A stretch of DNA of 39,261 nucleotides, taken from assembly GCA_011388305.1 (NCBI GenBank), contig DSAF01000088.1:1-39261 (forward strand), written 5' to 3'. A model generated the notes under the pieces. The model searched no databases, was not told the origin of the DNA, and saw only the letters and a list, made by a program, of their open reading frames with translations. Origin of the DNA: Candidatus Zixiibacteriota bacterium. Its GTDB lineage: Bacteria; UBP14; UBA6098. A program made the translations under genes and the position numbers. Below are positions 20,600 through 36,951 of the stretch, piece after piece (position 1 is the stretch's first letter; each line of letters opens with the position of its first letter).

Positions 20600-20752
20600 G
20601 CTCGCTCCGGCGGCGTCGGCGCAACCGAAGGTTGCTTCGGCGAACCGGAATGATGTCTTATGCTTTTGGCACAGAGCTTCCGCTCCGGTTCGCCGCTACG
20701 CATAGCTACGCTTGCGTAGCTATGCGAGCCGACGCCGCCGGAAAGCGCGAGC
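20600..20752. repeat. Four-way-junction palindromic element, copy 1
   Basis: P1 20606-20620/20728-20742 (15 bp); short hairpin 20621-20635; P3 20638-20649/20684-20695 with a 34-nt loop; long hairpin 20699-20726. Confidence 0.8.
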
Positions 20753-20753
20753 C

Positions 20754-20785
20754 AAAGAAAAGGCCGAACCCGCGGGTTCGGCCTT
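20754..20785 (-). terminator. Terminator of the RND operon (possibly bidirectional)
   Basis: Palindrome aaggccgaacc-cgcg-ggttcggcctt, followed on the minus strand by ttcttt. Confidence 0.75.
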
Positions 20786-20809
20786 CGTTAGTTATTATTG
20801 ACTTATCGA

Positions 20810-23800
20810 CTACTCCGGCGCAAGCTCGCAACTATTATCGGTTTGGGCGAGGCCGTTAGCTTCTTCCTCGCCATGGACGAGTGCTACGAAGTTTTTCTGC
20901 GCGCGAATCGAGAGCTTATCTGCGATTGAATAGAACACGGGGACGAAGTATAGTGTCAAGAAAGTCGCCGAGATAAGGCCGCCGATGACAGTGAGCGCCA
21001 TGGGCGAACGAAGCTCTGCGCCATCGCCGCGGGCAATAGCCATAGGGAGCATGCCGATAATCGTCGTGAGCGCAGTGATGAGCACCGGCCGAATGCGGTC
21101 ATAGCCCGCTTGAACGAGTGCGTCCTCTTTGCAGAGGCCGTTTCGGCGGAGCTGATTCGTATGGTCAACCAGCACAATCCCGTTGTTCACCACAATTCCG
21201 GCGAGGATGATCACCCCCACGAAGGACACAACGGACAGCGTCGAGCCGGAGATAAGGAAAATCCATACTACGCCGATTGCGGCCAGCGGAAGCGCCACCA
21301 TTATCACAAGCGGCTGAACGAGCGATTCGAACAGCGCGGCCATGATTGCATATACGACGATAATCGCCAAAAGCATGGCAATGGCCAAATCTTGGAATGC
21401 GTCCTTCATCTGCTCCTGTTCACCGGAAATTTCATAGTCATATCCCGGCTCGAAATTCGCCACGATGGGCGCGATTCGTTCCTCGATGTCTTTCACGATG
21501 CTCCCGAGGTCTCTTCCTCTGCGGTTGCCATAGACGTGGACGAGACGCGTCTGCATCTCGCGTTCGATGCGCACCGGCCCTTCGGCCTCGATGAAATCGG
21601 CGACCTCCTTCAGCGGAACGAAGCCCATGGGCGTTGAGATGGGCATGTTCATAATGTCCTCGATGTCCAGCCGTTCGTCCTCGCGGAGGCGCACGCGGAT
21701 GTCGGTCTCCTCGCCAGCGCGGTCGCGGAGGCGCGTGGCGACAGCGCCGAGCGTGAGCGTGCGTATTTGGTTCGCCAGAAGGTATGTCGGAACGCCGAGG
21801 CGGGACGCTTTCTGCTTGTTAATGCGAATCTCAATCTCGGGCTTGCCCTGTTCCACGCTGGAGCGCACATCGGCAAAGCCGGGAATATCACGGGTTACAT
21901 CGGCAATCACCAGAGAGTATTCTCTCAATCGGTCGTTGTCTTCGCCGAAAATCTTGATATCGATGTCGCCTTCGCCGGAACTCATCATGTTCATCTCTGT
22001 AAGCTCAAGTTCCACACCCTCGAAGTCCGGGAATCGCTCCGTTATCTCATCGGCGATTTCGCCGCTTTTGCGCCTTCTGCTGGGGTCGAGGACTACCATC
22101 ATCATAGCCTCATTCGAGCCTTTCGGCCCGAAACCCATCTGTGCCTCCGAGCCGACCATTGTCATCGCGCGGTCAACCTCCGGAATGCTGAAGACGATGT
22201 CCTCAAGAAACATAGCCTTCTCGTCCGTCACGCCCACGCGCGTGCCAACGGGCAGTCTCATGTTGATAGTTACCATATCGTCATCGGCCTTCGGGAAAAA
22301 TTCGCTTCCCACAAACGTGAAAACCCCCGCCGACACGGCCAGAACCACAATGAGAATCAATACCATAGCGCCTTTATGGTAAATCGCCCATTCGAGCGAC
22401 TTGCGGTATTTCGCTCGAACCCTGTCGAAGATGCCGAGCTTGGTCTTTTTTATTGTCTTCTCGCGCCGGAAAAGCAGAGACGCGACCATCGGAACAATCG
22501 ACAGAGAGACAACAAGCGAGCATATCAGCGCGAACGAGATTGTCATTGCAAGTCCCCGCGTGAGTTGGCCGGCAAGCCCCGCAGAGAACACCATAGGGAG
22601 GAAAACCGCGATTGTAGTGAGCGTGCTGGCGGTGATCGCCATCCCGACCTGATTCGCGCCGACTTTCGATGCCTCCCCACGATGTTTGCCAAGCTCGATG
22701 TTTCGATATATGTTCTCGATAACGACAACCGCGTTATCGACAAGCATGCCCACGCCGAGCGCTAAACCTCCCAGTGTCATGATGTTGAGCGTATATCCGG
22801 CGAGCCGGAGCGGGATGAATGTCGCCACCACGGAGAGAGGAATCGCCAGCGCAATCGCGAATGTAGGCCGCCAGTTTCGCAGGAAAATCCAAATCATAAG
22901 GACTGCCAGAACGCCGCCGATTATCGCGTTCATCGATGTGGCATTGCCCACGCGAGTGATGCTGTCGGCCATATCAAGCCCAAAAGTGTATTCGATGTTG
23001 TCGGGCATGTCCGTCCATAGTGCATCGAGTGCTTTTTTCACGCGGTTTCCCACGGCGACGCTGTTCGAGTTCGATTGCTTAAAGACAATCATCACGACGC
23101 CCTGTTTGCGGTTTCCGCGGATGAAAGAACGCGTTTCCTTTATCGCGTCCCTCACATCGGCGATTTCGGCAAGGTGAATCGGCTGGCCAAACTGCGTCGC
23201 GCCGACGACTATCTCGCCGACCTCCTCGACGCTCCCAAACTCGCCGATTGTGCGCAGAAGATATTCCTCTTCGCCAATATTGATAAGCCCTGCGGGCATG
23301 TTGATGTTCTGCACCATTATTGCGTTCTGGACATCCGATGGCGAAATGCCCAGTTCACGCATCTTGAGGCCATCGAGGAAGACCTGCACCTCGCGCTCGT
23401 CGCCGCCGAAGACAAGTATGCTCGCCACACCGTCGATGCGCTTAAGCGGCGCGGCAATTTGGTCTTCGACCAACTGTCTCAGCGCCCTCGTGTCGTCCAT
23501 TCCGGTGATTGGGATGGTCATAACCGGCATCTGGCCGATGTCGAACTTCGACACGAACGGCCTGCGGGCGTCCTCCGGCAGAAAGTCTAACGCTTCGTCC
23601 AGCGATGCGCGGACATCCTGTGCGGCGAAATCGATGTTTGTCCCCCACTCGAATTCGAGAATGAGCATGGATAAGTTTTCGCGGGAAACGGAGCGCACCT
23701 TCTTGAGATTGCTCACCGTCCCGACATAGCCCTCCAGCGGCTCGGTGACGTTCTTCTCGACCTCTTCGCTACCTGCGCCGGGATATACCGTTGTCACGGT

Positions 23801-23935
23801 GACCATGGGAAATTCGATGTCGGGGAACAAGTCGAGACCAAGCCCCCACAACGCCCAAATCCCCATCACCACGAGGATAAGGGCGAACATGGATATTGTC
23901 ACTCGCCGCTTGACTGAAAATTCAGGGATTGTCAC
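20810..23935 (-). CDS. RND efflux permease subunit (AcrB/SwrC/MdtB-like)
   Basis: 1041 aa; LDLFPDIEFP, GMLVDNAVVVIENI, GIVVNNGIVLVD, RIRPVLITALTT; GTGA overlap with the MFP gene. Confidence 0.96.
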   Translation of the reverse strand: MTIPEFSVKRRVTISMFALILVVMGIWALWGLGLDLFPDIEFPMVTVTTVYPGAGSEEVEKNVTEPLEGYVGTVSNLKKVRSVSRENLSMLILEFEWGTNIDFAAQDVRASLDEALDFLPEDARRPFVSKFDIGQMPVMTIPITGMDDTRALRQLVEDQIAAPLKRIDGVASILVFGGDEREVQVFLDGLKMRELGISPSDVQNAIMVQNINMPAGLINIGEEEYLLRTIGEFGSVEEVGEIVVGATQFGQPIHLAEIADVRDAIKETRSFIRGNRKQGVVMIVFKQSNSNSVAVGNRVKKALDALWTDMPDNIEYTFGLDMADSITRVGNATSMNAIIGGVLAVLMIWIFLRNWRPTFAIALAIPLSVVATFIPLRLAGYTLNIMTLGGLALGVGMLVDNAVVVIENIYRNIELGKHRGEASKVGANQVGMAITASTLTTIAVFLPMVFSAGLAGQLTRGLAMTISFALICSLVVSLSIVPMVASLLFRREKTIKKTKLGIFDRVRAKYRKSLEWAIYHKGAMVLILIVVLAVSAGVFTFVGSEFFPKADDDMVTINMRLPVGTRVGVTDEKAMFLEDIVFSIPEVDRAMTMVGSEAQMGFGPKGSNEAMMMVVLDPSRRRKSGEIADEITERFPDFEGVELELTEMNMMSSGEGDIDIKIFGEDNDRLREYSLVIADVTRDIPGFADVRSSVEQGKPEIEIRINKQKASRLGVPTYLLANQIRTLTLGAVATRLRDRAGEETDIRVRLREDERLDIEDIMNMPISTPMGFVPLKEVADFIEAEGPVRIEREMQTRLVHVYGNRRGRDLGSIVKDIEERIAPIVANFEPGYDYEISGEQEQMKDAFQDLAIAMLLAIIVVYAIMAALFESLVQPLVIMVALPLAAIGVVWIFLISGSTLSVVSFVGVIILAGIVVNNGIVLVDHTNQLRRNGLCKEDALVQAGYDRIRPVLITALTTIIGMLPMAIARGDGAELRSPMALTVIGGLISATFLTLYFVPVFYSIADKLSIRAQKNFVALVHGEEEANGLAQTDNSCELAPE

Positions 23936-24954
23936 TTTCCAACCTCCCCCGCGACATGGACTTCGAGGCCGTCGCGAAGACCAACCGCCCCTCTGCTGAC
24001 GACCATCTCGCCGGCCTTAACGCCCGAAGTAAGTTGCACGATTCTGCTCGTCATGAGTCCCGTCTCGACAACTCGGCGCTCGACTTTGCCTCCGCTGAAC
24101 ACGAAAGCGATGCTGTCGGCGACGATGGAGGTTCGCGGAACAACGAGGGCGTTGTCGATTACATTCACGATTACCTCTGCCTCGACAAAAACCCCCACGG
24201 GAAGCCTCCCGCCCTTGTTTTCGAGTATGATATCGCCGGAGAAGAGGCCTGTTATTGGGTCGGCGCCGGGGGAGAGGTGATCGAGTTTGCCGTCGAAAGT
24301 TGTATCGGGGAAGACTTCGCAAGTGATGCGCGCCGACATTCCCGGAGAAAGTCTCCGGAAATCCTTCGCGGCGATAGTCACGGGAAGCTTGAGGCGTTCG
24401 GTGGTTGCGAGGCGGACGATTCCGCGCATCCCCGGGGCATAGACATCGTGCTCGTTGAAATATTTCCCCACGATAGTGCCAGCAAAGGGCGCCCTAAGCT
24501 CGGTGTTGTCGAGCACTTGGTGGTATCCGGCCTTTGCGGCGAGATAGCCCGCTCGCGCCTGATCATAGCTCTGCGGGGCGATGAGGCTATCTTCGTAAAG
24601 CGATTTCATGCGCTCGTATGTCTGCTCGGCGGCCTCGAATTGGGCTTGCGCCTGCTGGAGCGTCTCGCCTTTCATGCGAACGAGAAGGCGTCCCTGCGGG
24701 ACTTTCTCGCCCACATCGACGAAGATTCGCTCGATTGTTCCCGGCATCTGGGGGAATACCATGATGTCCATCTCGCCCTCGAGCCTGCCGGTGAACTTGA
24801 CCGTCTCCTCGAGGTCGGTCTGTTCAACCTCATGCAGGACGACGGAAACTCTTTCGCGGATAAATCCGACCTTTTCGGATTGGTCTTTGCCGCAACCTAT
24901 AAGGCCAATCGTGGCCATCGCGATTACTAATGCAAAAAATATCTTCCTTGTCAT
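23932..24954 (-). CDS. RND periplasmic adaptor (membrane fusion) lipoprotein
   Basis: Lipobox LIGC; GEKVPQG, ELRAPFAGTI, LPVGVFV, LVVPRTSI, VETGL. Confidence 0.94.
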   Translation of the reverse strand: MTRKIFFALVIAMATIGLIGCGKDQSEKVGFIRERVSVVLHEVEQTDLEETVKFTGRLEGEMDIMVFPQMPGTIERIFVDVGEKVPQGRLLVRMKGETLQQAQAQFEAAEQTYERMKSLYEDSLIAPQSYDQARAGYLAAKAGYHQVLDNTELRAPFAGTIVGKYFNEHDVYAPGMRGIVRLATTERLKLPVTIAAKDFRRLSPGMSARITCEVFPDTTFDGKLDHLSPGADPITGLFSGDIILENKGGRLPVGVFVEAEVIVNVIDNALVVPRTSIVADSIAFVFSGGKVERRVVETGLMTSRIVQLTSGVKAGEMVVSRGAVGLRDGLEVHVAGEVGK

Positions 24955-25026
24955 CTTTGACTCCTTATTTGTTCAGACAGCTAAATTTCAAAACATTGGT
25001 CGGTGATTGACGCTTTCGTCCCGTTA

Positions 25027-25107
25027 GTCATTTCGCGCCAAGCGAGAAATCTCGCTATTCTTGGGCGGCTGAGATTTCTCGTCGAGCTTCGCTCTCCTCG
25101 AAATGAC
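25027..25107. repeat. GTCATTTCG...CGAAATGAC REP/MITE-like palindromic element
   Basis: Terminal 9-bp inverted repeat; internal cgagaaatctc/gagatttctcg stem; half copy at 2660-2685. Confidence 0.8.
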
Positions 25108-25159
25108 AGAAAAGAGGCGCGAGATTCCATCTTATGGGTAAAGCGAAGCATATCTTGCC

Positions 25160-26458
25160 TTACTCCGTCACCACTGCGCCGATGGCGGCCTCGTATTCGA
25201 TTGCGGCGATTTTCAAATCGGCGATGGCCGAGATGTATTCGGCCTGCGCCTGAATAAGCGTGCTGTTCGCGTCGAGGATGTTCGTGTTCGTGACCAGCCC
25301 CGTCTCGAACTCGGCGACTGCTACGCGGTATGCCTCGTTGGCCTGTTCGAGCCGCCTTCTCGATACTTCGAGGGCTTTTTCGGCCTCATCGAGGGCGTTG
25401 AACTGGTTGCGGATTTGCATCTCGGCGGCGCGGGTAGCCATATCGAGGGTCTCGGCGGTTTGTCGTCTGTTAAATCGGGCTTTGCGGACGGAGAAAATCC
25501 TCTCGCCGAAGGAGATAAGCGACCAACTTGCCGCGATCGTGACGTTCCAAGAGTCGTAGAATTCCTCCTCCAAGGCCTGATTGGGGCGCTGATATGTCCA
25601 GTTGAACATCCCGACGACATCTGGCGCGAAAGCTCCCCACGAGATAGCCTCGACGGCGCGTGTCGCACTGACGCCAAGCTCCAGCATGCGGATATCCGGA
25701 CGCCATGAGAGGCCGTATTCGATGCCGTCGCTCAGCGCAGGCCATGCGACATTCGCCGATGATGTGTCCGGCTCGAGCGCGAGCATGGTGTCCGAGGGGA
25801 AATTGAGCAGGAAGTTCAGCCCGAGGCGAGTGGCGTTGACGGCGTTGTTCGCGCGGATTATCAGGAGGTCGATTTCCGAGCTTGCCACGCGCGTTTGGAG
25901 CAGGTCGTTGCGCGAAACCATTCCCTGCGCAAACATGCCCTCGATAACGGCGAGATGGCCGTCCATTCGCTCGCGGGCTTGTTGCATGTTCTCCAAAAAA
26001 AGCTCGGCCTTGACCACGCCGTAGTATGCTTGCGCGATATTCACGACGGTGGATGTCTTCTCGCTGAGGAGGTTTTGCTCCTGCATGAGCGCGCTAAACC
26101 GCGCCGCGCGATAACCCTGAACGATTTTCCCGCCGGTGAAAATCGGCTGTTGGACGCCGACATTCAGCCTATAATTATCCTGCTTGCCCATCTCGATAGT
26201 CATGCCGCCGAACATGGGCGGCATTTGGATGACCGGCACCTCGCCGAGGCGCGTGTATGAGCCTTCGGCTTTGGCGCGCGGGAGGAAGTTGGTTAGCGCA
26301 ATCTTCGCGTCCTCGCGGGCGGAATCTCGGCCATATTGCGCAATCTTGACCTGCGCGTTGGCCTCCAGCCCGCGCTCGATTGCGTCATCCAGAGTGAGCG
26401 CTCCGGCGAACTGCGCCGCCGTGAGCGCGACTAATAATAATGTAATAATAGTTTTCAT
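25160..26458 (-). CDS. TolC-family outer membrane efflux protein
   Basis: Signal peptide; LTLDDAIERGLEAN, QQPIFTGG, RPDIR, FETGLVTNTNILDA; SD AAGGA before ATG 26458. Confidence 0.93.
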   Translation of the reverse strand: MKTIITLLLVALTAAQFAGALTLDDAIERGLEANAQVKIAQYGRDSAREDAKIALTNFLPRAKAEGSYTRLGEVPVIQMPPMFGGMTIEMGKQDNYRLNVGVQQPIFTGGKIVQGYRAARFSALMQEQNLLSEKTSTVVNIAQAYYGVVKAELFLENMQQARERMDGHLAVIEGMFAQGMVSRNDLLQTRVASSEIDLLIIRANNAVNATRLGLNFLLNFPSDTMLALEPDTSSANVAWPALSDGIEYGLSWRPDIRMLELGVSATRAVEAISWGAFAPDVVGMFNWTYQRPNQALEEEFYDSWNVTIAASWSLISFGERIFSVRKARFNRRQTAETLDMATRAAEMQIRNQFNALDEAEKALEVSRRRLEQANEAYRVAVAEFETGLVTNTNILDANSTLIQAQAEYISAIADLKIAAIEYEAAIGAVVTE

Positions 26459-26482
26459 CTGCGTCCTTTTGAACAAATCTTT

Positions 26483-27088
26483 TCAGCTAACTTTCGCCGC
26501 GCCGTGCAGGAACAGCTCTAAAACGTCTTTCCTTTTGGACATAATGTCGAAATCTTTACACAGCAATCCCATCTCGCTGGCATATCCGCCTATCATCGTC
26601 ATGAGCATCAGCGCCAAATCCTCCGTAGCGATGTTCGGGTTCGCCTTATCGCGATGCTTTTCAAAGAAGGCCGTCAGGCTCATTCGAAGATTCTGCAATC
26701 CCTCGAAAACATTGGGGTGTATAATGTTATGGACTAACTCGGAGTGGTGCATTCCGTCGGCCATCATCATTCTAAAGAGTGTGGTATTTCGTTGGAAATA
26801 CTCAAAAGACAGCGTGATGTAGTCGAATATGCCCTCCTCGAGCGTGTTCTCGCGAGAGAAAATCTCATTGGCGCTTTCGAGAAGGCTACGAAATTTTTCC
26901 TGAATAAGCTCGACTAAAAGGTGATCCTTGCCGCCGAAGTAATTGTATATGGTGGCTTTGGAAAAGCCCGCGCGCTCGGCGATTTCCTCGATTGTCGTGC
27001 CGGAGTAGCCCTTTTGCTCGAAAAGCTCCTCCGCAGAACTTAGGAACAGCCTTTTGTTGCGAAGTTTATCCAGTTCGCGTCTTCTCAT
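26483..27088 (-). CDS. TetR/AcrR family transcriptional regulator
   Basis: AEELFEQKGYSGTTIEEIAERAGFSKATIYNYF HTH; SD GGAGG; first gene of the efflux operon. Confidence 0.95.
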   Translation of the reverse strand: MRRRELDKLRNKRLFLSSAEELFEQKGYSGTTIEEIAERAGFSKATIYNYFGGKDHLLVELIQEKFRSLLESANEIFSRENTLEEGIFDYITLSFEYFQRNTTLFRMMMADGMHHSELVHNIIHPNVFEGLQNLRMSLTAFFEKHRDKANPNIATEDLALMLMTMIGGYASEMGLLCKDFDIMSKRKDVLELFLHGAAKVS

Positions 27089-27130
27089 ATATCCTCCGAA
27101 AGTTAGGCTCGCTAAAAACTCATGTTAATT

Positions 27131-27186
27131 TTACGACCAAGAGTCTAATCTCTGAAAGATATTATACAGCATATCAAAATTTTCAA
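27131..27186 (-). promoter_or_regulatory. tetR-operon promoter (TTGAAA-16-TAATAT) with possible operator TTAGAC-tcttg-GTCGTAA
   Basis: Hexamers at 27181-27186 and 27159-27164; imperfect palindrome at 27131-27148 just downstream of the predicted start site. Confidence 0.45.
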
Positions 27187-27243
27187 GTTATTTTGTAATT
27201 TTTTTTGCGAATTTCAGCCAATGCGCAAAATTCCCATATCCGA

Positions 27244-27381
27244 GCGCGGGGGCGTCGGCCCCTCCTGCGATTTGTCAAATCGCAGGAGGGAGCGAAGTAG
27301 TCGGTGGGAAGACTCTGCACTAAGCGCCAATCCCGCCCCGACTACTTCGCTGGCCGTCCACGGCCGCCGACGCCCCCGCGC
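27244..27381. repeat. Four-way-junction palindromic element, copy 2 (inverted relative to copy 1)
   Basis: P1 27244-27259/27366-27381 (16 bp); long hairpin 27260-27290; P3 27291-27304/27338-27351 with a 33-nt loop; short hairpin 27352-27365. Confidence 0.8.
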
Positions 27382-27515
27382 GAACTACAAGCAAAATCTT
27401 TTGCCAATATGACAAACACCCACTATCCCGTCTCGATCGATCAAATCGCTACTGAGGCGCATAAATACGCTATTTTGCGTGGTTTGGCATTTCGCTTGCA
27501 TTTATTAAATGCGCG

Positions 27516-27905
27516 ATGATGAAGATTAGAAAAATACTGATTCTGGAGGATGACCGCGCGGCTTCGGAAACGCTGACCGACTTTTTATCGGGCTTCGGCG
27601 TCGAATGCGAGTGCATCAAGAACGCCGATGATTTCGCTTCCGTTTTCTCACCGTCATTCGACGCGGCAATCATCGACATCAATATTGAGGGCGAATTTGA
27701 CGGACTGCATATTCTCCGCCAGATTAAATCTCGCCATTCGACAATATACACAATAGTAGTAACCGCAAAGGACATTGACGACAACCGCCGGCGAAGCATC
27801 GCCATGGGCGCGGATTCTTTTTTCGGCAAGCCGCTCGATCTCTCTCAAATTGCCGATGCCCTCGATCTTCGCGCTCCGGCAGACAGCCGAGAGGGGACGA
27901 TATGA
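27516..27905 (+). CDS. Single-domain response regulator (CheY-like receiver)
   Basis: ILILEDD, phospho-acceptor IIDINI, DG, VVTA, GADSFFGKP; no output domain. Confidence 0.88.
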   Translation: MMKIRKILILEDDRAASETLTDFLSGFGVECECIKNADDFASVFSPSFDAAIIDINIEGEFDGLHILRQIKSRHSTIYTIVVTAKDIDDNRRRSIAMGADSFFGKPLDLSQIADALDLRAPADSREGTI

Positions 27906-29392
27906 GCATACTTAAGCGCACCACGGCGTTGACCGCCACGCTCATTATATCGGGCTTTCTTTTGGGGGTCATCGCGACGGCCAACTGGGACGCCCTTTTC
28001 CGCGCGGGCAAAGTCGAGGTATCCACCTCAGGGGCGCAGGAACGCCCATCGCCCCGAAATGGCATCATGCTCCCGAACTTCGCGGACATCGCCGAGGAGA
28101 TCATGCCGACCGTCGTCACGGTTTACTCCGAGCAAGTCATACGCATCCGGAGGCCGAGCTTCGGCTTCGACGACGAGTTCTTCCGGCGCTTTTTCGGATT
28201 GCCAGACAGTCCCCGCGACCGCGAGCCTCAATACGACGAGTTCCGCCAGCAGGGACTGGGAAGCGGCGTCATCGTCACGACCGACGGATATATTCTCACA
28301 AACAATCACGTCATAGCCAACGCCGATGACATCCGCGTCAAGGCCGGCGATAGAACATTCGACGCCGAGGTGGTCGGCACAGACATCAAAACCGACCTCG
28401 CAGTGCTCAAAATCGAGCCGGACGGACCGCTCTCCGCTATCAAGCTGGGCGATTCGGACAAGATTCGCATAGGCGAATGGGTGCTGGCAGTCGGCCATCC
28501 GTTCAACCTCGACCATACCGTGACGGCGGGAATTCTCTCGGCGAAAGGCAGAAACCGCGTGGGAATCACCGATTATGAGGATTTCCTCCAGACCGACGCG
28601 GCAATCAATCCGGGCAACTCCGGCGGCGCGCTGGTCAACATGAACGGCGAGCTTATCGGAATTAACACGGCGATAGCCACGCGCACAGGATCGTCCGCCG
28701 GCGTAGGGTTCGCCATCCCGAGCAACATGGCGAAAGCCGTCATGGATCAGCTCATCGAGCACGGCAAAGTCCGGCGCGGCTATGTCGGCATCAACATACA
28801 AGACCTTACGCCCGAACTGGCCGATGCTATGGGCATCGACAGGACGGACGGCGTTATTATAACTCATGTCGTTTCCGGGCAGGCGGGCGATAAAGCCGGC
28901 CTCAAAGCATCCGACCTCGTGATTTCAATAGATGGCAGGCCGGTGAAAACCTCATCGGAGCTGAGAAATGTTATCGCTTCCAATCCCCCGGGCACCAAGA
29001 TTTCTCTCGAAATTATCCGCGATGGAAGAGTGAGAACTATCGACATCGTTTTGGGCGATTCACCCGATGCGGTGGCGGAACTGAAGCCCGAGCCGGAGAA
29101 ATCCCCGGACATCGGCATCGAACTCGAGCCGGCGGAGCCGTCCGACCTCGTGCAGTTCGGCTATTCCAAAGGCCTCATCGTCAAATCCGTAGAGCCAGGC
29201 TCCCCCGCAGACCGCGCGGGGATTATGCCCGGCGACATCGTGTTCGAGGTCAATCGCAGTGAGGTCGGCAAAATCGATGAATTCAACCGTCAGCTTCAAA
29301 AAACACCATCGGGGAGGCCGCTACTTCTCCTCGTCGGAAGAGGCGACGGGATGATGTATGTTGCATTGAATTTACACGATGACAAACGATAG
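27902..29392 (+). CDS. degP: DegP/DegQ (HtrA) periplasmic serine protease with 2 PDZ domains
   Basis: GSGVIV, TNNHV, DLAVLKI, QTDAAINPGNSGGAL, two PDZ domains. Confidence 0.95.
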   Translation: MSILKRTTALTATLIISGFLLGVIATANWDALFRAGKVEVSTSGAQERPSPRNGIMLPNFADIAEEIMPTVVTVYSEQVIRIRRPSFGFDDEFFRRFFGLPDSPRDREPQYDEFRQQGLGSGVIVTTDGYILTNNHVIANADDIRVKAGDRTFDAEVVGTDIKTDLAVLKIEPDGPLSAIKLGDSDKIRIGEWVLAVGHPFNLDHTVTAGILSAKGRNRVGITDYEDFLQTDAAINPGNSGGALVNMNGELIGINTAIATRTGSSAGVGFAIPSNMAKAVMDQLIEHGKVRRGYVGINIQDLTPELADAMGIDRTDGVIITHVVSGQAGDKAGLKASDLVISIDGRPVKTSSELRNVIASNPPGTKISLEIIRDGRVRTIDIVLGDSPDAVAELKPEPEKSPDIGIELEPAEPSDLVQFGYSKGLIVKSVEPGSPADRAGIMPGDIVFEVNRSEVGKIDEFNRQLQKTPSGRPLLLLVGRGDGMMYVALNLHDDKR

Positions 29393-29564: not shown

Positions 29565-30470
29565 ATGGCCATTATCTATGTTTTGATTATTTTAGCGTCC
29601 GGCATTCTCGCGCAGGAGGCCGAGGCGACTTCCGTTCCCGAGTGGGGCGACATCGAGATTGAAAGCTCGCTCTCGGCGGACTCAGTCGCCCAAAACGATA
29701 CGCTTGTTTTCACGATGAAGCTCAAACTTCGTGGCAACCCCGACGACTACGCAATCGCCGAGCCGGGTTCGCCGCCGGTGAGCAATCTCACCCTCGTGGC
29801 AACATCGCAGGCAAACCGCACGGAGCGCCGCGACGGCGGCACCGAGTTAATCAAAGAATACCGATACAGCTACACGCCGATTTCGATAGGCATGGCATAT
29901 TTCAACCCGCTTCGGGTGCAGTATGTCTTCGTTCCGAACGGCGAGAGCAGGTCGCTGACGACGAGCCGCCTCGAAATCAAGGTCACCGAGCCGGTTCTCC
30001 CTAAGGAGAGCGCCGATTGGCTGGTCATTCTCATCGTCGTGGCGATTGTCATTGCGGGGGCGGCTATCGCATTCGTTCTCTCGAAAAAAACGCCGGTGGA
30101 GGCTTCGCCTGAGCAAATCCCCGACCCGCCGGAGAAGACCGCCCGCGAGCGGCTCGCCAAACTCAAGCCCCAGAGAGAGTCTGATATGGCGGCCTACATC
30201 GATGGAATCACGCGAATTCTTTACAACTATATATTCGACAGATACGCCATCGACACATCCAAGCTCTCGAAACGGGAGATGGTCTCCGCGCTGGAAGACA
30301 AAGGCGTCTCGTCGGTGAGAAGCATCGACATGGCTCTGGGGATTTGCGACGAAGTGCGCTTCGCCGCCCATAAGCCCACGCCAGACGACCGCGACGCAAT
30401 CGAGACGGCGCTCGAAGGCCTGCTCACTTTCGGCGAAAAGAGATTTGCCCCCGAGGAAGAGCCATCGTAA
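29565..30470 (+). CDS. BatD-like Ig-fold membrane protein
   Basis: Signal peptide; beta-rich domain (LSADSV...YRYSYTP...LEIKV); TM; C-terminal helical domain ending CDEVRFA; SD GGAGG. Confidence 0.7.
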   Translation: MAIIYVLIILASGILAQEAEATSVPEWGDIEIESSLSADSVAQNDTLVFTMKLKLRGNPDDYAIAEPGSPPVSNLTLVATSQANRTERRDGGTELIKEYRYSYTPISIGMAYFNPLRVQYVFVPNGESRSLTTSRLEIKVTEPVLPKESADWLVILIVVAIVIAGAAIAFVLSKKTPVEASPEQIPDPPEKTARERLAKLKPQRESDMAAYIDGITRILYNYIFDRYAIDTSKLSKREMVSALEDKGVSSVRSIDMALGICDEVRFAAHKPTPDDRDAIETALEGLLTFGEKRFAPEEEPS

Positions 30471-30506: not shown

Positions 30507-31496
30507 ATGAACGAAGAAATCATGCGCTTGAACGAGCGAATCGCCGAGGAGTCGCGCTTCGTGGAGGACATGCGAGCCGAATTCTCCAAGGTAATCGTCG
30601 GCCAAAAACTACTTATCGACCGCTTAATTATCGGACTTCTGGCCAACGGACACGTCCTTCTCGAGGGTGTCCCGGGAATCGCGAAAACGCTCTCTGTGCA
30701 GACATTGGCGAACATCGTGCAGGCCGAGTTCCAGCGGATTCAATTCACGCCGGATCTTCTGCCGGCGGACATAGTTGGGACTTTGGTCTATAATCAAGCC
30801 AAAGGCACATTCACCACGAAGCAAGGCCCGATTTTTGCCAACATCATTCTCGCCGATGAAATCAACCGCGCGCCGGCGAAAGTCCAGTCCGCGCTTCTGG
30901 AGGCGATGCAAGAGCGGCAGGTGACTATCGGCGAGGAGACATTCCCACTGCCGAACCCGTTCATGGTGCTCGCTACCCAGAACCCAATCGAGCAACAGGG
31001 GACATATCCCCTTCCCGAGGCGCAGGTTGACCGCTTCCTTCTCAAAGTCATCGTGGAATACCCCGAGCGAGAGGAGGAGCGCGAGGTGATGCGCATTCAC
31101 GGCAAAATCCAGCCGCCGAGAGCCTCCGCGACCGTCAAACCCGAGGACATCGTCAAGGCGCGGGCAACCGTCAGGGACATCTATGTTGACGAGAAAATCG
31201 AATCGTATATACTCGATTTAGTTTTCGCAACGAGAAAGCCCTCGCAATATGGCCTCGACGAGCTTGAGGAGCTAATCCAATACGGCGCCAGCCCCCGCGC
31301 AACGCTCTATCTGCGAAGTTGCGCGCAGGCACGCGCATTCATGCAACACCGTGGATATGTCACCCCCGAGGATGTCCGCACAATCGCGATGGACGTGCTT
31401 CGCCACCGGGTGATTCCCACATACGAGGCCGAGGCTGAGGAGATTACATCGGAGGACATCGTTCGCAAAGTTCTCGGTGCCGTCGAGGTGCCTTGA
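30507..31496 (+). CDS. moxR: MoxR-family AAA+ ATPase
   Basis: HVLLEGVPGIAKT, RIQFTPDLLPAD, LADEINRAPAKVQSALLEAM, ATQNPIE, GASPRA. Confidence 0.96.
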   Translation: MNEEIMRLNERIAEESRFVEDMRAEFSKVIVGQKLLIDRLIIGLLANGHVLLEGVPGIAKTLSVQTLANIVQAEFQRIQFTPDLLPADIVGTLVYNQAKGTFTTKQGPIFANIILADEINRAPAKVQSALLEAMQERQVTIGEETFPLPNPFMVLATQNPIEQQGTYPLPEAQVDRFLLKVIVEYPEREEEREVMRIHGKIQPPRASATVKPEDIVKARATVRDIYVDEKIESYILDLVFATRKPSQYGLDELEELIQYGASPRATLYLRSCAQARAFMQHRGYVTPEDVRTIAMDVLRHRVIPTYEAEAEEITSEDIVRKVLGAVEVP

Positions 31497-31519
31497 TGAC
31501 GATATGTCGAGAGAGGTAG

Positions 31520-32299
31520 ATGAACAAAGCCGCCGAAAATAAAAAGCGCAAAGAGAGCGACTGGGACCGCGCATTCATGGAGCTTGTCGAATCTCCGGAC
31601 AGTTTGTCCGGCATTCGGACGCCGCTTATGGTGCAGTGGCTCATAGGAATCTGCGTTGTGCTCTTCGCCCTGCTGTTCTTTCTTGGGCAGGTGCTTCCGG
31701 CGGAGAAGTCCGGCCTATATTTGCTCATCTCGGCGCTGTCGATATTGGCGATTGGGATTTTTGGGATGTTCGCGCTGTCGAGGGCCGCAAACCAGTCGCG
31801 CAAACTCAAAGACCTGCTCGACATTGACCGCGCGACAGGCCTATATAGCTCGATATTCCTCATGGAGGAGCTTGACCGCCTGACATCGGCAGGCAAGGGC
31901 GAATTGTCGGTAATTTTCATCGACCTCGACGAGCTGAAGCAATATAACGATAAATACGGCCACCGCAGGGGAGACCAGCTCATCCGAAGCGCGGGACAGG
32001 CAATCAAATCCGCCATCGCGGGGCACGGGACGGGATTCAGATACGGCGGCGACGAGTTCGTGGCGATTCTTCAGAATGTGCTACCAGAGACCGCCGTGCA
32101 AATTGCCAAGAGAGTGCAGAAATCTTTCGAGGATAGCGGAATCTCCGCATCGATAGGCATCTGCAGGTGGCGCCCGGGGATGTCATCGGACGAGCTAATC
32201 GACTCCGCCGACAAGGCCATGTATATGGCCAAACGAGCCGGCAAAGGCAGGCTTTTCATTCCGGATTTGGCCGGAGGATTTTCTAAAGGAGAAAAATGA
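31520..32299 (+). CDS. Membrane-anchored diguanylate cyclase (2 TM + GGDEF)
   Basis: FIDLDELKQYNDKYGHRRGD, RYGGDEF, SIG, ADKAMYMAKRAGK. Confidence 0.93.
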   Translation: MNKAAENKKRKESDWDRAFMELVESPDSLSGIRTPLMVQWLIGICVVLFALLFFLGQVLPAEKSGLYLLISALSILAIGIFGMFALSRAANQSRKLKDLLDIDRATGLYSSIFLMEELDRLTSAGKGELSVIFIDLDELKQYNDKYGHRRGDQLIRSAGQAIKSAIAGHGTGFRYGGDEFVAILQNVLPETAVQIAKRVQKSFEDSGISASIGICRWRPGMSSDELIDSADKAMYMAKRAGKGRLFIPDLAGGFSKGEK

Positions 32300-32859
32300 A
32301 GAAAGCGCTTCTACTCGTGTTGCTTATTGCTATTACACTCTCGGCCGCCGAGGATGTGACGGAAAGCACGCCGCCGAGACTCGGCCCGGCGGTTGGCATA
32401 ATGAACGCGCCGCTGGCCATAGGATACCGCATTCCCACTTCGGGGTATCGGAGCATCGATTTCGCTGTGCGCATTCCCGAGTTCTACAAAAACGACACCG
32501 GCGGCGTGGGCTTCTCGCTCGGCGCGCTCGCAGGATATAATATCCCCATGCGCATCGAGGAGAACATCGCTTTCGTGGTGAAGCCGCAGTTCGACATCGC
32601 GTTCTCCGCAGAGGATTTCAAAGCCGGCGATGATAGCTATCATACGAATACGATAAGCCTCAGGCCGGGGGCGTTCATGGGCGTCGAAGTCTTCCTCGAG
32701 GAGGTCGGCGTTAGCGATGTGAATATCGCGCTGGGATTCACGACCGGCATGGAACTTAACATCGTCGATAGCGGCTCGTCCTCTGCGGTATCGACTTTTC
32801 ATGTCCCAAAAGCGACATGGCCGTTCGGCGCAACAGTTGCGGTATGGTGGTATTTTTAG
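32296..32859 (+). CDS. Exported protein, probable small outer-membrane beta-barrel
   Basis: Signal peptide; amphipathic beta-strand pattern; C-terminal aromatic WWYF; ATGA overlap with the GGDEF gene. Confidence 0.65.
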   Translation: MKKALLLVLLIAITLSAAEDVTESTPPRLGPAVGIMNAPLAIGYRIPTSGYRSIDFAVRIPEFYKNDTGGVGFSLGALAGYNIPMRIEENIAFVVKPQFDIAFSAEDFKAGDDSYHTNTISLRPGAFMGVEVFLEEVGVSDVNIALGFTTGMELNIVDSGSSSAVSTFHVPKATWPFGATVAVWWYF

Positions 32860-32935
32860 ATTTGAGATTTGAAAGTTGAGAGTGGAGAGTGAACTACCTA
32901 AAACCTATAACCCATAACCCAAAACCTATACCAAC
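32859..32935. repeat. Degenerate 7-bp tandem arrays upstream of DUF58
   Basis: gatttga gatttga aagttga gagtgga gagtgaa, then acctaaa acctata acccata acccaaa acctata. Confidence 0.8.
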
Positions 32936-33811
32936 ATGATACCCAAGGAGATATTTAGGAAAATCCGCCGCCTCGACATCCGGACGAACAAGGTTGTCAA
33001 GGACATCTTCTCCGGCAAATATCACTCGGTGTTCAAAGGCCGAGGCATGGAGTTCACCGAGGTGCGCGAGTATGTCGTCGGCGATGATATTCGCAATATC
33101 GACTGGAACGTGACGGCGAGAACCGGAGAGCCTTATGTCAAGATTTTCGAGGAGGAGCGCGAACTGACCGTCATGCTCATGGTCGATGTGTCCAGCTCGG
33201 GCGAGTTCGGCACCGCAACGAGCATGAAGCGCGACATCGCCCTCGAAATCTGCGCGCTATTGGCGTTCTCGGCAATCGACAACAACGACCTCGTCGGCCT
33301 CATCATGTTCACCGACAAAATTGAGCGATGCATAATGCCCAAAAAGGGCAAGCGCCATGTCCTTCGCATTTTGCGAGAATTGCTCTACTTCAAGCCCGAG
33401 GACACGCAGACAGACCTCGCGCTCCCTTTGGATTATCTGAACAAAATCACCAAACGGAGCGCAATCGCGTTCATGATAAGCGATTTTATCGGCGAGGGAT
33501 ACGAGAAGGCAATGGCCGTCACCGCCAAAAAACATGACCTCGTGCCGATAGTCATTACCGACCCGCGCGAGCTTGAAATGCCCGGCATAGGCCTTGTAGA
33601 GATGGAGGACGCCGAGACCGGCACAACCGTCCTCATAGATACATCCGACCCGCAACTTCGGTCGAAGTTCGGCCTCAATGTATCCGAGGCACAGCTTAAG
33701 CGCGAGAAAGTTTTCAAGAGCATCGGCGTGGACAAAATCGACATTCGTATCGACAAGCCGTATATAGACGAGTTGATAGCGTTCTTTAAGAAAAGGGCGG
33801 CGAGATATTAG
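32936..33811 (+). CDS. DUF58 family protein (MoxR-associated, vWA-like)
   Basis: GKYHSVFKGRGMEFTEVREY, GDDIRNIDWNVTAR, FEEERE, DVSSS, ISDF. Confidence 0.95.
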   Translation: MIPKEIFRKIRRLDIRTNKVVKDIFSGKYHSVFKGRGMEFTEVREYVVGDDIRNIDWNVTARTGEPYVKIFEEERELTVMLMVDVSSSGEFGTATSMKRDIALEICALLAFSAIDNNDLVGLIMFTDKIERCIMPKKGKRHVLRILRELLYFKPEDTQTDLALPLDYLNKITKRSAIAFMISDFIGEGYEKAMAVTAKKHDLVPIVITDPRELEMPGIGLVEMEDAETGTTVLIDTSDPQLRSKFGLNVSEAQLKREKVFKSIGVDKIDIRIDKPYIDELIAFFKKRAARY

Positions 33812-33813
33812 GT

Positions 33814-33855
33814 GTTGGATTATGGGTTATAGGTTATGGGTATTAGGTATAAGGG
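33814..33855. repeat. 7-bp tandem array, reverse complement of the array upstream of DUF58
   Basis: tatgggt tataggt tatgggt attaggt ataaggg; 33820-33835 is the exact reverse complement of 32902-32917. Confidence 0.8.
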
Positions 33856-33870
33856 ACAAGGTGATAAGCT

Positions 33871-34824
33871 ATGGATAAGACAGGCGATCCGAGTAAAACG
33901 ATAAGAATTGCCCTAATCATAAGCCTCGCGGGCACACTCTGCACCGCGATCGCGCTGATTATTATGATAGCCATGCCACAGCGCAAGCCCATGAGCCTCG
34001 ACGAGGCCAGAAGCTACGCCGCCAAGCTCGCCAACGCGGAACTGTATGAGCAGGCCGTCGATGAATATGAGCGGATTTTCGCCGAATATCGCCTCTCCGA
34101 CCGCGACGCGGGGAGCATTCTCTACCAAGTCGGCACAATCTCCGGCGAGAAGCTCCATCAGCCGGCGAGAGCAATGGCGGCGTTCCTCAAGTTTCAAGAG
34201 CTTTACCCTATGCACCCGCTCATCGACGATGTGAACCGCAAAGCAGTCGCACAGCTCGACAGAATGGGCAAGTCGCGGCAGGCACAGAGCCTGCTTAGGC
34301 GAAGCGTCTCGCTCGGCAAGCCCGCAGACGAGGCCGACGACCCATCGCGGATAGTCGCGAAAATCGGCGATAGAGTAATCACCGCCGAAGAGGTAGAAAG
34401 CGCGCTGGAGGAACTTCCGAGGGAGGTATCGGCACAGCTCGGCGATGCCGTCGGGAAACAGCGATTCCTGCAAGAATATATTGGCCAACAGCTTATATAT
34501 AACGCCGCAATCCGCGCCGGATACGACCAACGGCCGGAAATTCTCGATCAACTCGAATCGGCGCAGATGAATATCATCGTCGCGGCGTTCTTCAAGGAGA
34601 GAATCGCCGATAGAGTGCAAATCTCCTCATCGGACATTGAAGTTTATTATAACATGAACAAGGCAAATTTTGGCGATAGGCCGCTCGAGGAGGTTCGTTC
34701 GCAAGTCGAACAGAAACTCCGATATCAGAAGATGGCCGAGCTTCAAGGCAAGATTTTCGAAGAACTAATGGAAACCGAGAACGTTCAGCTATTTCCGGAG
34801 AACCTGAGCAAACCCGAAGAATAG
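33871..34824 (+). CDS. Membrane-anchored TPR plus SurA/PrsA-like chaperone-domain protein (no parvulin core seen)
   Basis: N-terminal TM; TPR-like helices; IVAKIGDRVITAEEV, LIYNAA, SDIEVYY, PLEEVRSQV. Confidence 0.7.
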   Translation: MDKTGDPSKTIRIALIISLAGTLCTAIALIIMIAMPQRKPMSLDEARSYAAKLANAELYEQAVDEYERIFAEYRLSDRDAGSILYQVGTISGEKLHQPARAMAAFLKFQELYPMHPLIDDVNRKAVAQLDRMGKSRQAQSLLRRSVSLGKPADEADDPSRIVAKIGDRVITAEEVESALEELPREVSAQLGDAVGKQRFLQEYIGQQLIYNAAIRAGYDQRPEILDQLESAQMNIIVAAFFKERIADRVQISSSDIEVYYNMNKANFGDRPLEEVRSQVEQKLRYQKMAELQGKIFEELMETENVQLFPENLSKPEE

Positions 34825-34828
34825 TAGC

Positions 34829-35911
34829 ATGAAATGGCGTAGTATATTATTGATTATCGCATTGGCAACGATGGCCTCGTTGGCGCAGAAGGCATCCATT
34901 CAGACATCGGCCGAGCCGACGACTATTACTATCGGCGATTTGATAACCTACACGGTCGAGATTGTCCGCGAGCCTGATATTACAATACACTGGCCGGGTG
35001 CCGCCGCAGAGCTTGGGCAGTTCCAGATTGTTGATTTCGAGCCGGTCGATCGCACCCCCCTCGACGATGGGCGCCAGTGCGAGGCAATGACTTATTACAT
35101 AAGCACTTATGATGTCGGAGATTGGATAATTCCGCCAACGGCCATCGCATATTTCGACTCATCCGATGACACGACAGTTTTCCTCCGCACCGAGCCGATT
35201 CCCATCACGGTCAAATCTCTGCTCTCCGAGGCCGATTGGGAGCGCATCCGCGCAATCACCGAGATGGACACGACTTATGCGGGCATGGAGAAACAAATCG
35301 CCGCCGGCAGAGTCCTCCAGATGGCCAAGGATGACCTTCTGCGAGACATCACCTCGCCCAAGCGCATCAAACGCCCTGCGCGTTTCTGGATTGGGCTTGC
35401 CGTCGTCGCGATTATCATTGCGGGATTGATAGTCGGCTTTTTGTATTGGCGTAAACGGCGAAATATCCCCGGCGCGATACTCAGCTTCTCCGCGCCGGCG
35501 GTTCCGCCTCGCGAGTGGGCTTTGGGCGAAATCGCCGCCCTCGTCGCGGGGGATTGGCTCTCCCGCAGAGAATTCAAGTTGTTCTACTCGCGCCTCTCCG
35601 ATATCGTCCGAGAGTATATCGAGAGGCAGATGGGCGTCCGAGCACTCGAACTTTCGACAGGCGAAACGATGGAGAACCTCTCGGCATCGGCATATCCTAT
35701 TGTTGAGGACGACGAAAAGCTTCTTCTGGATATTCTCGAGCGTTGCGACCTCGTAAAGTTCGCCAAGTTCGTTCCGCCGGAGGACTGGCATTACAATCTA
35801 ATTGACCGTGCGAAGGACTTCGTAGAGCACACAACGCCGCCCGAACCCGAACCATCACCGGAGACCGCGCCCAATGTCGAGGAACTCCCCGCCGGAAAGG
35901 AGGCCGAATGA
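34829..35911 (+). CDS. BatD/DUF4381-like protein upstream of batA
   Basis: Signal peptide; ITIGDLITY; TM with WRKRR; FYSRLSDIVREYIE, ALELSTGE, CDLVKFAK. Confidence 0.8.
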   Translation: MKWRSILLIIALATMASLAQKASIQTSAEPTTITIGDLITYTVEIVREPDITIHWPGAAAELGQFQIVDFEPVDRTPLDDGRQCEAMTYYISTYDVGDWIIPPTAIAYFDSSDDTTVFLRTEPIPITVKSLLSEADWERIRAITEMDTTYAGMEKQIAAGRVLQMAKDDLLRDITSPKRIKRPARFWIGLAVVAIIIAGLIVGFLYWRKRRNIPGAILSFSAPAVPPREWALGEIAALVAGDWLSRREFKLFYSRLSDIVREYIERQMGVRALELSTGETMENLSASAYPIVEDDEKLLLDILERCDLVKFAKFVPPEDWHYNLIDRAKDFVEHTTPPEPEPSPETAPNVEELPAGKEAE

Positions 35912-36951
35912 TAGGCGATTTCATTAACAGAACCGCGAATGTCATCTTCGGGCCTCTGGTTGACGGCTTCTTAGATTTCGCTTCGCCGTGGTGGTTCCTG
36001 CTGATTCCTGTTGTCCTCGCACTTTTTGTGTGGCGTCGTCGTCGTCGCGGAGGCTCACTAAGATACTCGAATGTCGGCCTTCTGAAAGGCGCACGCCCAT
36101 CGGCGAGGGTGATGATTTTTGGCGCGCTGGCGTGGCTGGAGTTATTCGGCCTAATTTTTCTTTCTCTCGCCGCGGCGAGGCCCCGGGCGGGCAGTGTCCG
36201 TCAAACAACGTTCACCGAGGGCATAGATATTATGATAGTGCTCGACATATCCGGCTCGATGCGCGCCCTCGATTTCAAACCCAAAAACCGGATTGAGGCA
36301 TCGAAGATGGTCGCGGGAGAATTCATCAAAGGCAGGTCGAATGACAGAATCGGCCTCGTCGTTTTTGCGGGGAGGGCTTTCACGCAATGCCCGCTAACGC
36401 TCGACTACGGAGTCCTTCTCGAGTTCCTCGACGGCGTGGAGATTGGCCAAATCGAGGATGGAACCGCAATCGGAACGGCAATAGCCACCGGCGCTGACCG
36501 CCTTCGAGATTCAAGTGCAAAATCGAAGGTTATCATTCTTCTCACCGATGGTGTCAACAATCGCGGAGAGATCGACCCGATGACAGCCGCTCAGCTCGCT
36601 AAGGCACTGGGCATAAAGGTTTACACTATCGGCGCAGGACGCCCGGGACATGCGATGTTCCCCGTTGAGGACCCAATTTTCGGCACGCGGCACGTCCGTA
36701 TGGATGTCGAAATCGATGAAGAGAGCCTTACACAAATTGCGAGTCTCACAGGCGGCCAATACTTCCGGGCAACGGACACCGACGGATTGAGGAAAATATT
36801 TGGGGAAATCGACCAGATGGAGAAAACTAAAATAGAAGTGGATGAGTTCACTCAATATCGTGAGCTTTTCCCTTTCTTCCTCGTGATTGGCGCACTATTG
36901 TTGCTGGCCGATATTTTCTTGAGCAACACGCTATTCAGGAAGTTGCCGTAA
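35908..36951 (+). CDS. batA: BatA vWA-domain protein
   Basis: FASPWW, AARP, MIDAS DISGSM, DRIGLVVFAG, GTAIGTAI, LLTDGVNN, TGGQYFRA. Confidence 0.93.
   Translation: MIGDFINRTANVIFGPLVDGFLDFASPWWFLLIPVVLALFVWRRRRRGGSLRYSNVGLLKGARPSARVMIFGALAWLELFGLIFLSLAAARPRAGSVRQTTFTEGIDIMIVLDISGSMRALDFKPKNRIEASKMVAGEFIKGRSNDRIGLVVFAGRAFTQCPLTLDYGVLLEFLDGVEIGQIEDGTAIGTAIATGADRLRDSSAKSKVIILLTDGVNNRGEIDPMTAAQLAKALGIKVYTIGAGRPGHAMFPVEDPIFGTRHVRMDVEIDEESLTQIASLTGGQYFRATDTDGLRKIFGEIDQMEKTKIEVDEFTQYRELFPFFLVIGALLLLADIFLSNTLFRKLP

Follow-up and report, generated by a model that had tools for sequence, protein, structure and literature searches.

An intergenic repeat family with a four-way-junction fold, probably REPIN/MITE-like, in a genome of the uncultured lineage UBP14

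Bacterial MITEs (miniature transposable elements with inverted repeats) such as Correia, ERIC and RUP are small, non-coding, intergenic and multi-copy, and carry terminal inverted repeats and a stable secondary structure. In IS200/IS605 elements, the Y1 transposase TnpA reads subterminal hairpins on single-stranded DNA (ssDNA). For REPINs, the excerpted text of Bertels & Rainey 2011 (PMC3116915) describes conserved inverted ends around a spacer whose critical features are its length and its hairpin capacity, with compensatory changes being common. The CGTC-tagged repetitive extragenic palindromes (REPs), as outlined in excerpts of Di Nocera, De Gregorio & Rocco 2013 (PMC3733652), consist of an unpaired CGTC tag, an 8-9 bp stem whose first two positions are A/T, a loop of 4-5 nt and a CCA tail, and the same excerpts state that no dedicated transposase is known for them. 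Here we describe a repeat that folds into a four-way junction and occurs twice in a 39,261-nt stretch of DNA (the window; contig DSAF01000088.1, positions 1 to 39,261, assembly GCA_011388305.1) from a Candidatus Zixiibacteriota bacterium of the lineage UBP14, UBA6098. Its genome, the host genome below (G000), is a 2.15 Mb draft in 217 contigs, 92.5% complete. A preliminary description of the window, made from the sequence alone, offered two readings of the pair of repeats: an unnamed non-autonomous element resembling REPINs or MITEs, or paired structured sites delimiting an efflux cassette of ~6.5 kb. They belong to a dispersed family of intergenic palindromic DNA repeats, which we consider likely to be REPIN/MITE-like in kind, and two copies stand around the operon by coincidence.

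Copy 1 lies at 20600-20752 on the + strand and copy 2, a canonical member of the family, at 27244-27381 on the - strand; both were delimited from the sequence, the predicted ssDNA fold and a covariance model, R1, described below. They share one plan, in which an outer stem with a GGCGTCGGC/GCCGACGCC core encloses a short hairpin, a middle stem-loop and a long hairpin. The order of the arms is equal in both once copy 2 is read on the - strand, the two being mutually inverted. In copy 1, the 5' arm of the outer stem (20600-20620; GCTCGC followed by TCCGGCGGCGTCGGC) pairs with the 3' arm (20728-20752; GCCGACGCCGCCGGA, AAGC and GCGAGC) across a 4-nt AAGC bulge. Within it stand a short hairpin of 6 bp with a GAA loop (20621-20635; GCAACC-GAA-GGTTGC), a middle arm (20638-20695) whose 12-bp stem (20638-20649 with 20684-20695) closes a 34-nt loop (20650-20683) ending in CAGAGCTTCC, and a long hairpin of 13 bp with a TT loop (20699-20726). 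In copy 2, the outer stem is formed by 27244-27259 (GCGCGGGGGCGTCGGC) and 27366-27381 (GCCGACGCCCCCGCGC), both in + strand letters. Between them lie a long hairpin of 14 bp with a 3-nt loop (27260-27290), a middle arm (27291-27351) made of a 14-bp stem (27291-27304 with 27338-27351; AGCGAAGTAGTCGG / CCGACTACTTCGCT) and a 33-nt loop (27305-27337), and a short hairpin of 5 bp (27352-27365; GGCCG-TCCA-CGGCC in + strand letters). A possible outer terminal motif of copy 2, GATTTTGC in - strand letters, is weakly assigned at 27391-27398.

Upon folding as ssDNA, both copies gave four-way junctions, copy 1 at -66.7 kcal/mol (z -9.2) and copy 2 at -66.6 kcal/mol (z -11.3), and for neither was any of 200 shuffled sequences as stable. 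The pattern GGCGTCGGC-N(90-120)-GCCGACGCC occurs twice in the window, with 0.00 occurrences expected from 100 shuffles. The three inner arms of copy 1 are unlike those of copy 2 in sequence, and all stems are Watson-Crick paired. The positions and anatomy first described for the two elements are therefore borne out by the sequence and the folds, as is the claim that their arms differ yet stay paired. A single covariance model scores copy 2 at 150 bits and copy 1 at 100 bits.

To place the two copies within the host genome, we used a regular expression, which returned 52 places, and the covariance model R1, built from 22 diverse copies with four helices imposed. R1 found 56 distinct places at 100-156 bits (all those at or above 100 bits), and one further, truncated copy sits at the start of a contig. 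Copy 1 is a divergent singleton, the weakest of the 56, with inner arms that are matched nowhere else in the genome. The core element measures ~122-150 bp, or ~180 bp with its weakly conserved outer inverted repeats. The copies are intergenic, in 19 divergent, 21 tandem and 10 convergent spacers, and of the 106 genes that flank them, 64 point away from the element (P = 0.04); the gene calls behind these counts come from a crude longest-ORF caller, which is a caveat to the reading that we favour.

The stems covary strongly. In the 22-copy alignment, in which variation is over-represented because the copies were picked for diversity, 92.4% of cells hold standard pairs, compared with 83% after shuffling and 36-47% with the partner displaced by 1-3 columns. 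Changes on both sides are seen at 30 of 49 pairs, a number reached by 0 of 500 shuffles. The cells of the long hairpin are 99.3% paired; compensatory changes occur at 11 of its 14 pairs, and one-sided variation at none. The six junction-proximal base pairs of this hairpin (27260-27290 in copy 2) are the hypervariable and always compensated part of the family: 50 copies carry 12 variants there (CCTTCC, CCCACC, CTCCTC and others), with 1 mismatch in total. Identity between copies is 87-89% in the stem arms, 63% in the middle loop and 55% at the loop centre. The middle loops cluster into related groups that are placed at unrelated loci, which indicates descent by copying. We rejected a guide-target role for this variable loop: compared with its own flanks it showed no excess of identity or complementarity, the mean longest match being 6.2, equal to the 6.18 found against the flanks of other copies.

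Does the covariation point to an RNA? A structured non-coding RNA, or a cis-regulatory RNA motif at many loci, would also be backed by covariation in four helices, and the conservation of the architecture and of the middle-arm length across genera speaks for it too. However, the minimum-energy folds of all 56 copies contain 3078 Watson-Crick and only 39 G-T pairs (1.3%), and because the pairing is almost purely Watson-Crick, both strands fold alike. Neither is there a bias in orientation, since the copies in tandem contexts divide, relative to transcription, into 13 antisense and 8 sense (P = 0.38), element orientation is not associated with the neighbouring genes on either side, and divergent, tandem and convergent spacers are all used. 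Rfam gave no match at gathering thresholds over the window, and at E ≤ 1 the five element loci searched gave chance-level hits only (E 0.34-0.98), to two miRNA families and the YenS sRNA, which answers the earlier suggestion that the repeat be compared with Rfam. Lastly, copy 1 neither contains nor adjoins a promoter-like site, and copy 2 has none directed outwards. An RNA is very improbable on this evidence, and the repeat fits a REPIN/MITE-like DNA element instead. The proposal of a non-autonomous family whose structure is kept at the DNA level has thus held up, with at least 56 copies, strong covariation and no Rfam match behind it.

REPINs, as described in PMC3116915, are the closest functional analogue of this family. 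Like them, the repeat has tens of extragenic copies with conserved inverted ends that pair, and its interior keeps length and hairpin capacity by compensation; a predicted ssDNA fold, a single-copy, vertically inherited Y1 gene in the genome and long persistence within the lineage extend the likeness. The interior, on the other hand, comprises three hairpins in a four-way junction and not one long hairpin, the element exceeds a REP doublet 2-3 times in length, and its copies are enriched in divergent, promoter-side spacers and not downstream of genes. The Y1 gene also differs from that of a REPIN-RAYT pair (RAYT, REP-associated tyrosine transposase), being unflanked by the repeat in all but 1 of 8 genomes and scoring 15.8 against a cut-off of 80 on the REP-associated model. 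With the CGTC-tagged REPs, as far as the excerpts of PMC3733652 describe them, the repeat shares an invariant CGTC at the foot of each terminal hairpin (GG-CGTC-GGC plus hairpin, on both strands), a head-to-head inverted layout and the lack of any dedicated transposase found. In the four-way element, however, CGTC is base-paired inside the outer stem, and the terminal hairpins are G/C-rich and unequal (5 and 14 bp) with a third arm of ~60 nt between them. We rejected membership in the four CGTC families described in that source, from which the repeat is set apart by their descriptions there.

The resemblance to MITEs is equally partial. The repeat is small, non-coding, intergenic, multi-copy and stably folding, with the outer stem as its terminal inverted repeats, but no target-site duplication was detected and no related autonomous insertion sequence with the same ends was found in the host genome; unlike ordinary decaying MITEs, it keeps pairing by compensation in all arms. 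As in IS200/IS605, the proposed recognition would be of folded ssDNA with a conserved foot beside a hairpin and no target duplication. It differs from that group in having no transposase between its ends and a weak strand bias: orientation followed GC skew as a weak trend only (Fisher P = 0.068, Mann-Whitney P = 0.025), on short contigs with very weak skew, and we did not use it. In the open-access literature that we searched, we came upon neither a four-way-junction intergenic repeat nor any account of repeats from this lineage, and the family looks undescribed.

We then considered its range. Among the seven other genomes (G001-G007) of the family-level clade f1 to which the host belongs, R1 was positive in five, namely the congener G001, G002, G003, G004 and, with a single match, G007. 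It found nothing in 18 genomes from the other five families of the class or in 33 genomes outside f1 in a wider sample. The copies in relatives have entirely different arm sequences, outer hairpins of varying length and elements of 131-195 nt, and 28 of the 31 examined fold as an outer stem with three branches. In all of them the middle arm measures 56-63 nt, and they keep the GGCGTCGG / CCGACGCC core; this 9-nt core is invariant across genomes. When named genome records were scanned with a 10-nt core, 80 of 103 matching loci were examined. Among the 80 matches listed, R1 scored at least 49 bits at seven, six from the metagenome-assembled genome (MAG) "bacterium UBP14_UBA6098", which NCBI taxonomy places in unclassified candidate phyla, and one from an uncultured-bacterium MAG. 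Six more among those listed scored 25-37 bits and 67 had no match at E ≤ 0.001; we read these 73 listed loci as chance occurrences of the core because they lie mostly in actinobacterial, proteobacterial and other G+C-rich records. A scan of viral contigs gave a single match, outside the family.

Around the copies in the window stands an efflux operon on the - strand (20810-27088), assigned by Pfam as RND (20810-23935), MFP (23932-24954), OEP/TolC-like (25160-26476) and TetR (26483-27088) genes. Copy 1 sits just beyond the RND stop codon and copy 2 just upstream of the TetR start, which is what suggested that the two might be recombination or cassette boundaries of a mobile 6.5 kb efflux module. 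Inverted copies just outside the operon ends agree with that idea, and mutual inversion is found in 6 of the 7 close pairs in the host genome, a non-significant excess (P = 0.125). The spacing itself is that of chance, since 7 adjacent pairs lie within 7 kb of each other compared with 6.3 ± 2.2 under random placement (P = 0.45). In the congener, moreover, the glycosyltransferase, RND, MFP, OEP and TetR genes are syntenic with the window at 69-75% DNA identity, and a filter-free model search found no full element around the operon there, nor in G002, G003 or G005. The congener counterpart of the copy 1 spacer (233 nt) holds only a remnant, in which CCGACGCCCC comes after a 6-bp hairpin with a GAA loop. 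A 10-mer of this type occurs once outside elements in all of the host genome, and because its chance in a 233-nt spacer is ~1e-4, the fragment looks like a decayed copy.

In the congener, the element corresponding to copy 2 lies upstream of the ortholog of the response regulator (46% identity). Next after that gene comes the ortholog of 29565-30470 (61% identity), and the left neighbour is a different gene. Given that place, copy 2 belongs with the regulator side and not with the efflux operon. As a side observation, the HtrA/DegP-like protease gene at 27902-29392 is absent at this congener locus (L171), where the regulator stands directly before the ortholog of 29565-30470. No transposase, integrase, recombinase or nuclease was recognized among the 36 open reading frames scanned in the window, the rest being housekeeping genes, in keeping with the earlier remark that the window encodes no cognate enzyme. 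The preliminary description had reasoned that many scattered copies, together with a syntenic operon in relatives, would reduce the flanking to coincidence; the genome holds at least 56 scattered copies, and the congener operon is syntenic. The bracketing is coincidental, given the chance-level spacing and the syntenic operon without a full element in the congener. The proposal of paired sites delimiting a cassette, contradicted by both, was rejected, and we regard it as the least probable of all the explanations considered.

For the family as a whole, the favoured reading is of non-autonomous DNA for which an enzyme acting in trans would place copies at new intergenic sites. An outer stem with the invariant GGCGTCGGC/GCCGACGCC core closes the short hairpin, the constant-length middle arm (56-63 nt), which has a large loop, and the long hairpin, and either strand can fold. 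We infer that the enzyme would recognize the fold, either in single-stranded form or as an extruded cruciform. Propagation may be confined to copies whose hairpins are intact, or hairpins may be re-perfected by arm-templated repair, and either would yield paired Watson-Crick changes in the arms while the loops drift. Related loop lineages at different sites, and positions that differ between species, point to mobility.

A number of results weigh against this reading, some from the ends of the element and from populations, others from its sites and its candidate enzyme. The outer stem is 12-19 bp and extends 2-10 bp past the core, in a copy-specific and compensated manner. About 23 nt outside the core, ATTTTC is found on one side in 12 of 56 copies and GAAAAT on the other in 12 of 56, over a background of ~3%, and from these outer motifs the full unit is an imperfect palindrome of ~180 bp. 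At the outer-stem boundary, direct repeats of 4 nt were found in 0 of 56 copies and of 3 nt in 3 of 56; those of 2 nt, in 7 of 56 where 3.5 are expected, have to be read with the true ends of the element uncertain. A transposition event, an empty site and a target-site duplication were all unseen. We scanned metagenome contigs with the canonical middle-stem motif and obtained 44 loci, of which 40 match host-genome contigs, some partially, at 99.2-100% identity; the other four were discarded as unrelated long perfect palindromes, three of them at contig ends. All of the ~37 near-identical loci were occupied at the same sites, with no empty site among them, and changes showed no excess inside elements (5 in 5,443 nt vs 59 in 81,974 nt). 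Lastly, the host genome yielded no autonomous parent that shares these ends, and no distant pair of cores surrounds an open reading frame in it; the 144 solo core 8-mers fall almost all within coding sequence.

Sites were compared by mapping the flanking genes of 25 congener elements (loci including L153-L172, L022, L027 and L032) onto the host genome, which matched 48 flanks. Eight of the 48 have a host-genome element at the same gene end, where 3.3% are expected (P = 2e-4), and 7 of the 8 shared sites are at gene 5' ends. Such sharing may reflect copies that stay where they are for long periods, or that serve the host, and not copies that move freely. In this light, the copies could be structural or regulatory DNA sites retained by the host, for example binding sites or cruciform sites for a nucleoid, topology or regulatory protein, no longer mobile and kept upstream of genes by host selection. 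The contexts rich in divergent spacers and the genes reading away from the element would agree, as would conserved stems with drifting loops, near-identical metagenome loci free of polymorphism and the lack of a mobilising enzyme tied to the family. Orientation, though, is not kept at the shared sites: relative to the shared gene, by our reading of the arm order, it is the same in 5 and opposite in 3, and in general it is unrelated to neighbouring genes. For 38 of the 48 flanks there is no element at the corresponding host-genome end, and the remaining 2 run into contig ends. The arms are specific to each genome, the family is limited to part of one family-level clade, and related loop lineages stand at unrelated loci. 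We consider retention by host selection unlikely.

Gene order across the elements was also compared. Our script counted adjacency as kept at 1 of 17 positions across elements and 24 of 32 within flanks; upon inspection, an element turned out to lie between the genes in 5 of the 8 non-adjacent within-flank rows. With these reassigned, adjacency is kept across 1 of 22 congener elements vs 24 of 27 pairs within flanks (Fisher P = 1e-9). In element-free spacers of > 80 nt, a small control set, adjacency was kept in 5 of 6 (P = 4e-4). Assembly gaps do not explain the lost adjacency because only 2 flanks reach host-genome contig ends. Either the elements stand at breakpoints of rearrangement, or they are placed by preference at the boundaries of operons, where gene order shifts anyway. 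A broader alternative would be a new kind of bacterial DNA element, defined by its four-way, Holliday-junction-like fold and not by sequence, with only a 9-bp junction-proximal core and the arm geometry fixed. Its arms would be continually rewritten and kept complementary by arm-templated synthesis, and across species its copies would either stay at the same gene-proximal sites or come back to them, would invert where they stand and would be favoured breakpoints of rearrangement, handled by a junction- or hairpin-specific enzyme other than a canonical RAYT. We hold this to be a minority possibility.

The arms could also have been perfected without any transposase. According to excerpts of PMC8604942 and PMC7202029, template switching between the arms of an inverted repeat homogenises them and inverts their spacers. 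If the repeats were self-maintaining palindromes of this type, with arms perfected by polymerase template switching (quasipalindrome correction) and spread mainly by recombination between copies, template switching could explain two features: the scarcity of half-compensated states, with 1 long-hairpin mismatch in 50 copies that carry 12 base variants and G-T at 1.3%, and short-hairpin apical loops that are reverse complements of each other, as spacer inversion predicts (GTGGAC in 10 copies vs GTCCAC in 3; GTGAAC in 5 vs GTTCAC in 1-2). The loop-inversion evidence rests on 4-nt loops and could come from point changes. The documented homogenisation of arms and inversion of spacers and the position of elements at synteny breaks (adjacency 1 of 22 vs 24 of 27) also speak for such palindromes. 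They account for perfect arms and not for arrival at new loci, nor do they account for the 87-89% likeness of stem sequence across 50 copies or for a 9-nt core that is invariant across genomes. We therefore judge maintenance without a dedicated transposase quite improbable, and return to copying in trans as the reading that we favour.

For the enzyme, the host genome offers one candidate outside the window, a single-copy Y1_Tnp (HUH) transposase-like gene of 133 aa on contig C39 (9548-9946). Orthologs are single-copy in all 8 f1 genomes and present in 20 of 26 class genomes, with identity that follows relatedness (66% within the genus, 48-59% within the family, 28-39% beyond). This vertical, single-copy pattern is RAYT-like behaviour. 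The protein scores 52.7 bits on Pfam Y1_Tnp (cut-off 23), yet 15.8 vs 80 on the NCBIfam family REP_Tyr_transpos, below the threshold of the REP-associated family, and 42.5 vs 55 on transpos_IS200, also below threshold. Within ±1.5 kb of the host-genome Y1 gene there is no element or other repeat. The Y1 loci of G001, G002 and G004 have no element by model search, and those of G005-G007 none in folds of 260-300 nt per side. In G003, that genome's best-scoring element lies 51 nt downstream of the Y1 gene, the sole adjoining case among the 8 family genomes. Family f4, in which the element was not found, has the gene in 11 of its 12 genomes. Side by side, the Y1 gene occurs in 8 of 8 f1 and 20 of 26 class genomes and the element in the host, 5 of 7 other f1 genomes and 0 of 18 others, counts in which the negative genomes may carry other repeat families. 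The suggestion that Y1 genes be sought near the repeat led to a single such gene in the genome, with no repeat flanking it there. We regard the Y1/HUH gene as a weak candidate for the mobilising enzyme, possible but unproven. The C39 gene itself behaves like a domesticated gene of unassigned role.

The genes beside the two elements are a GT2 glycosyltransferase before copy 1 and, after copy 2, a response regulator and an HtrA-like protease (Pfam). Between copy 1 and the RND stop codon, a terminator-like GC hairpin at 20760-20785 has a counterpart in the congener and is not part of the element. Further along, 30507-38811 holds an operon resembling the aerotolerance type, with a MoxR AAA ATPase, a GGDEF protein, DUF58, several unassigned open reading frames, two VWA/BatA-like proteins and a methyltransferase; this operon is ordinary context.

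The window carries a second structured repeat at 25027-25110, in the MFP-OEP spacer, with an outer stem GTCATTTCG...CGAAATGAC and an inner hairpin GCGAGAAATCTC...GAGATTTCTCG. Its inner-arm 11-mer occurs 33 times in the host genome (both strands), and matches to the stretch are numerous in G004 and G005, with a single one in G002. Other abundant words in the host genome are GCAACCCGCGCGCC / CGCAACCCCCGTGCCAGC (~30 each), CCGAACCCGTTCAA (31) and GAGGCATGCCTCGCC (26). The GCAACCCGCGCGCC / CGCAACCCCCGTGCCAGC repeats stand directly beside four-way elements in several places (for instance in the flanks on contigs C12, C24 and C134). At C108:2451-2682, the ortholog of the congener element site L167, the host genome's spacer is a different one and contains a palindrome of the GTAG type, GTAGGGGCAAT...ATTGCCCCTAC, whose 11-mer occurs 11 times in that genome. 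The genome holds at least 4 or 5 repeat families despite its small size.

Taken together, this work adds a REPIN-like repeat with a three-hairpin, four-way-junction design from a barely studied uncultured lineage. The efflux operon between its two copies is ordinary chromosomal DNA and not a cassette with special boundary sites. With at least 56 copies in one small genome and diverged versions in sister genera, the family is a natural data set, useful for asking whether the integrity of hairpins comes from selection at element replication or from templated correction, and it could address whether CGTC-type repeats use a Y1 enzyme. The link between elements and breakpoints suggests that these repeats shape genome order in the clade.

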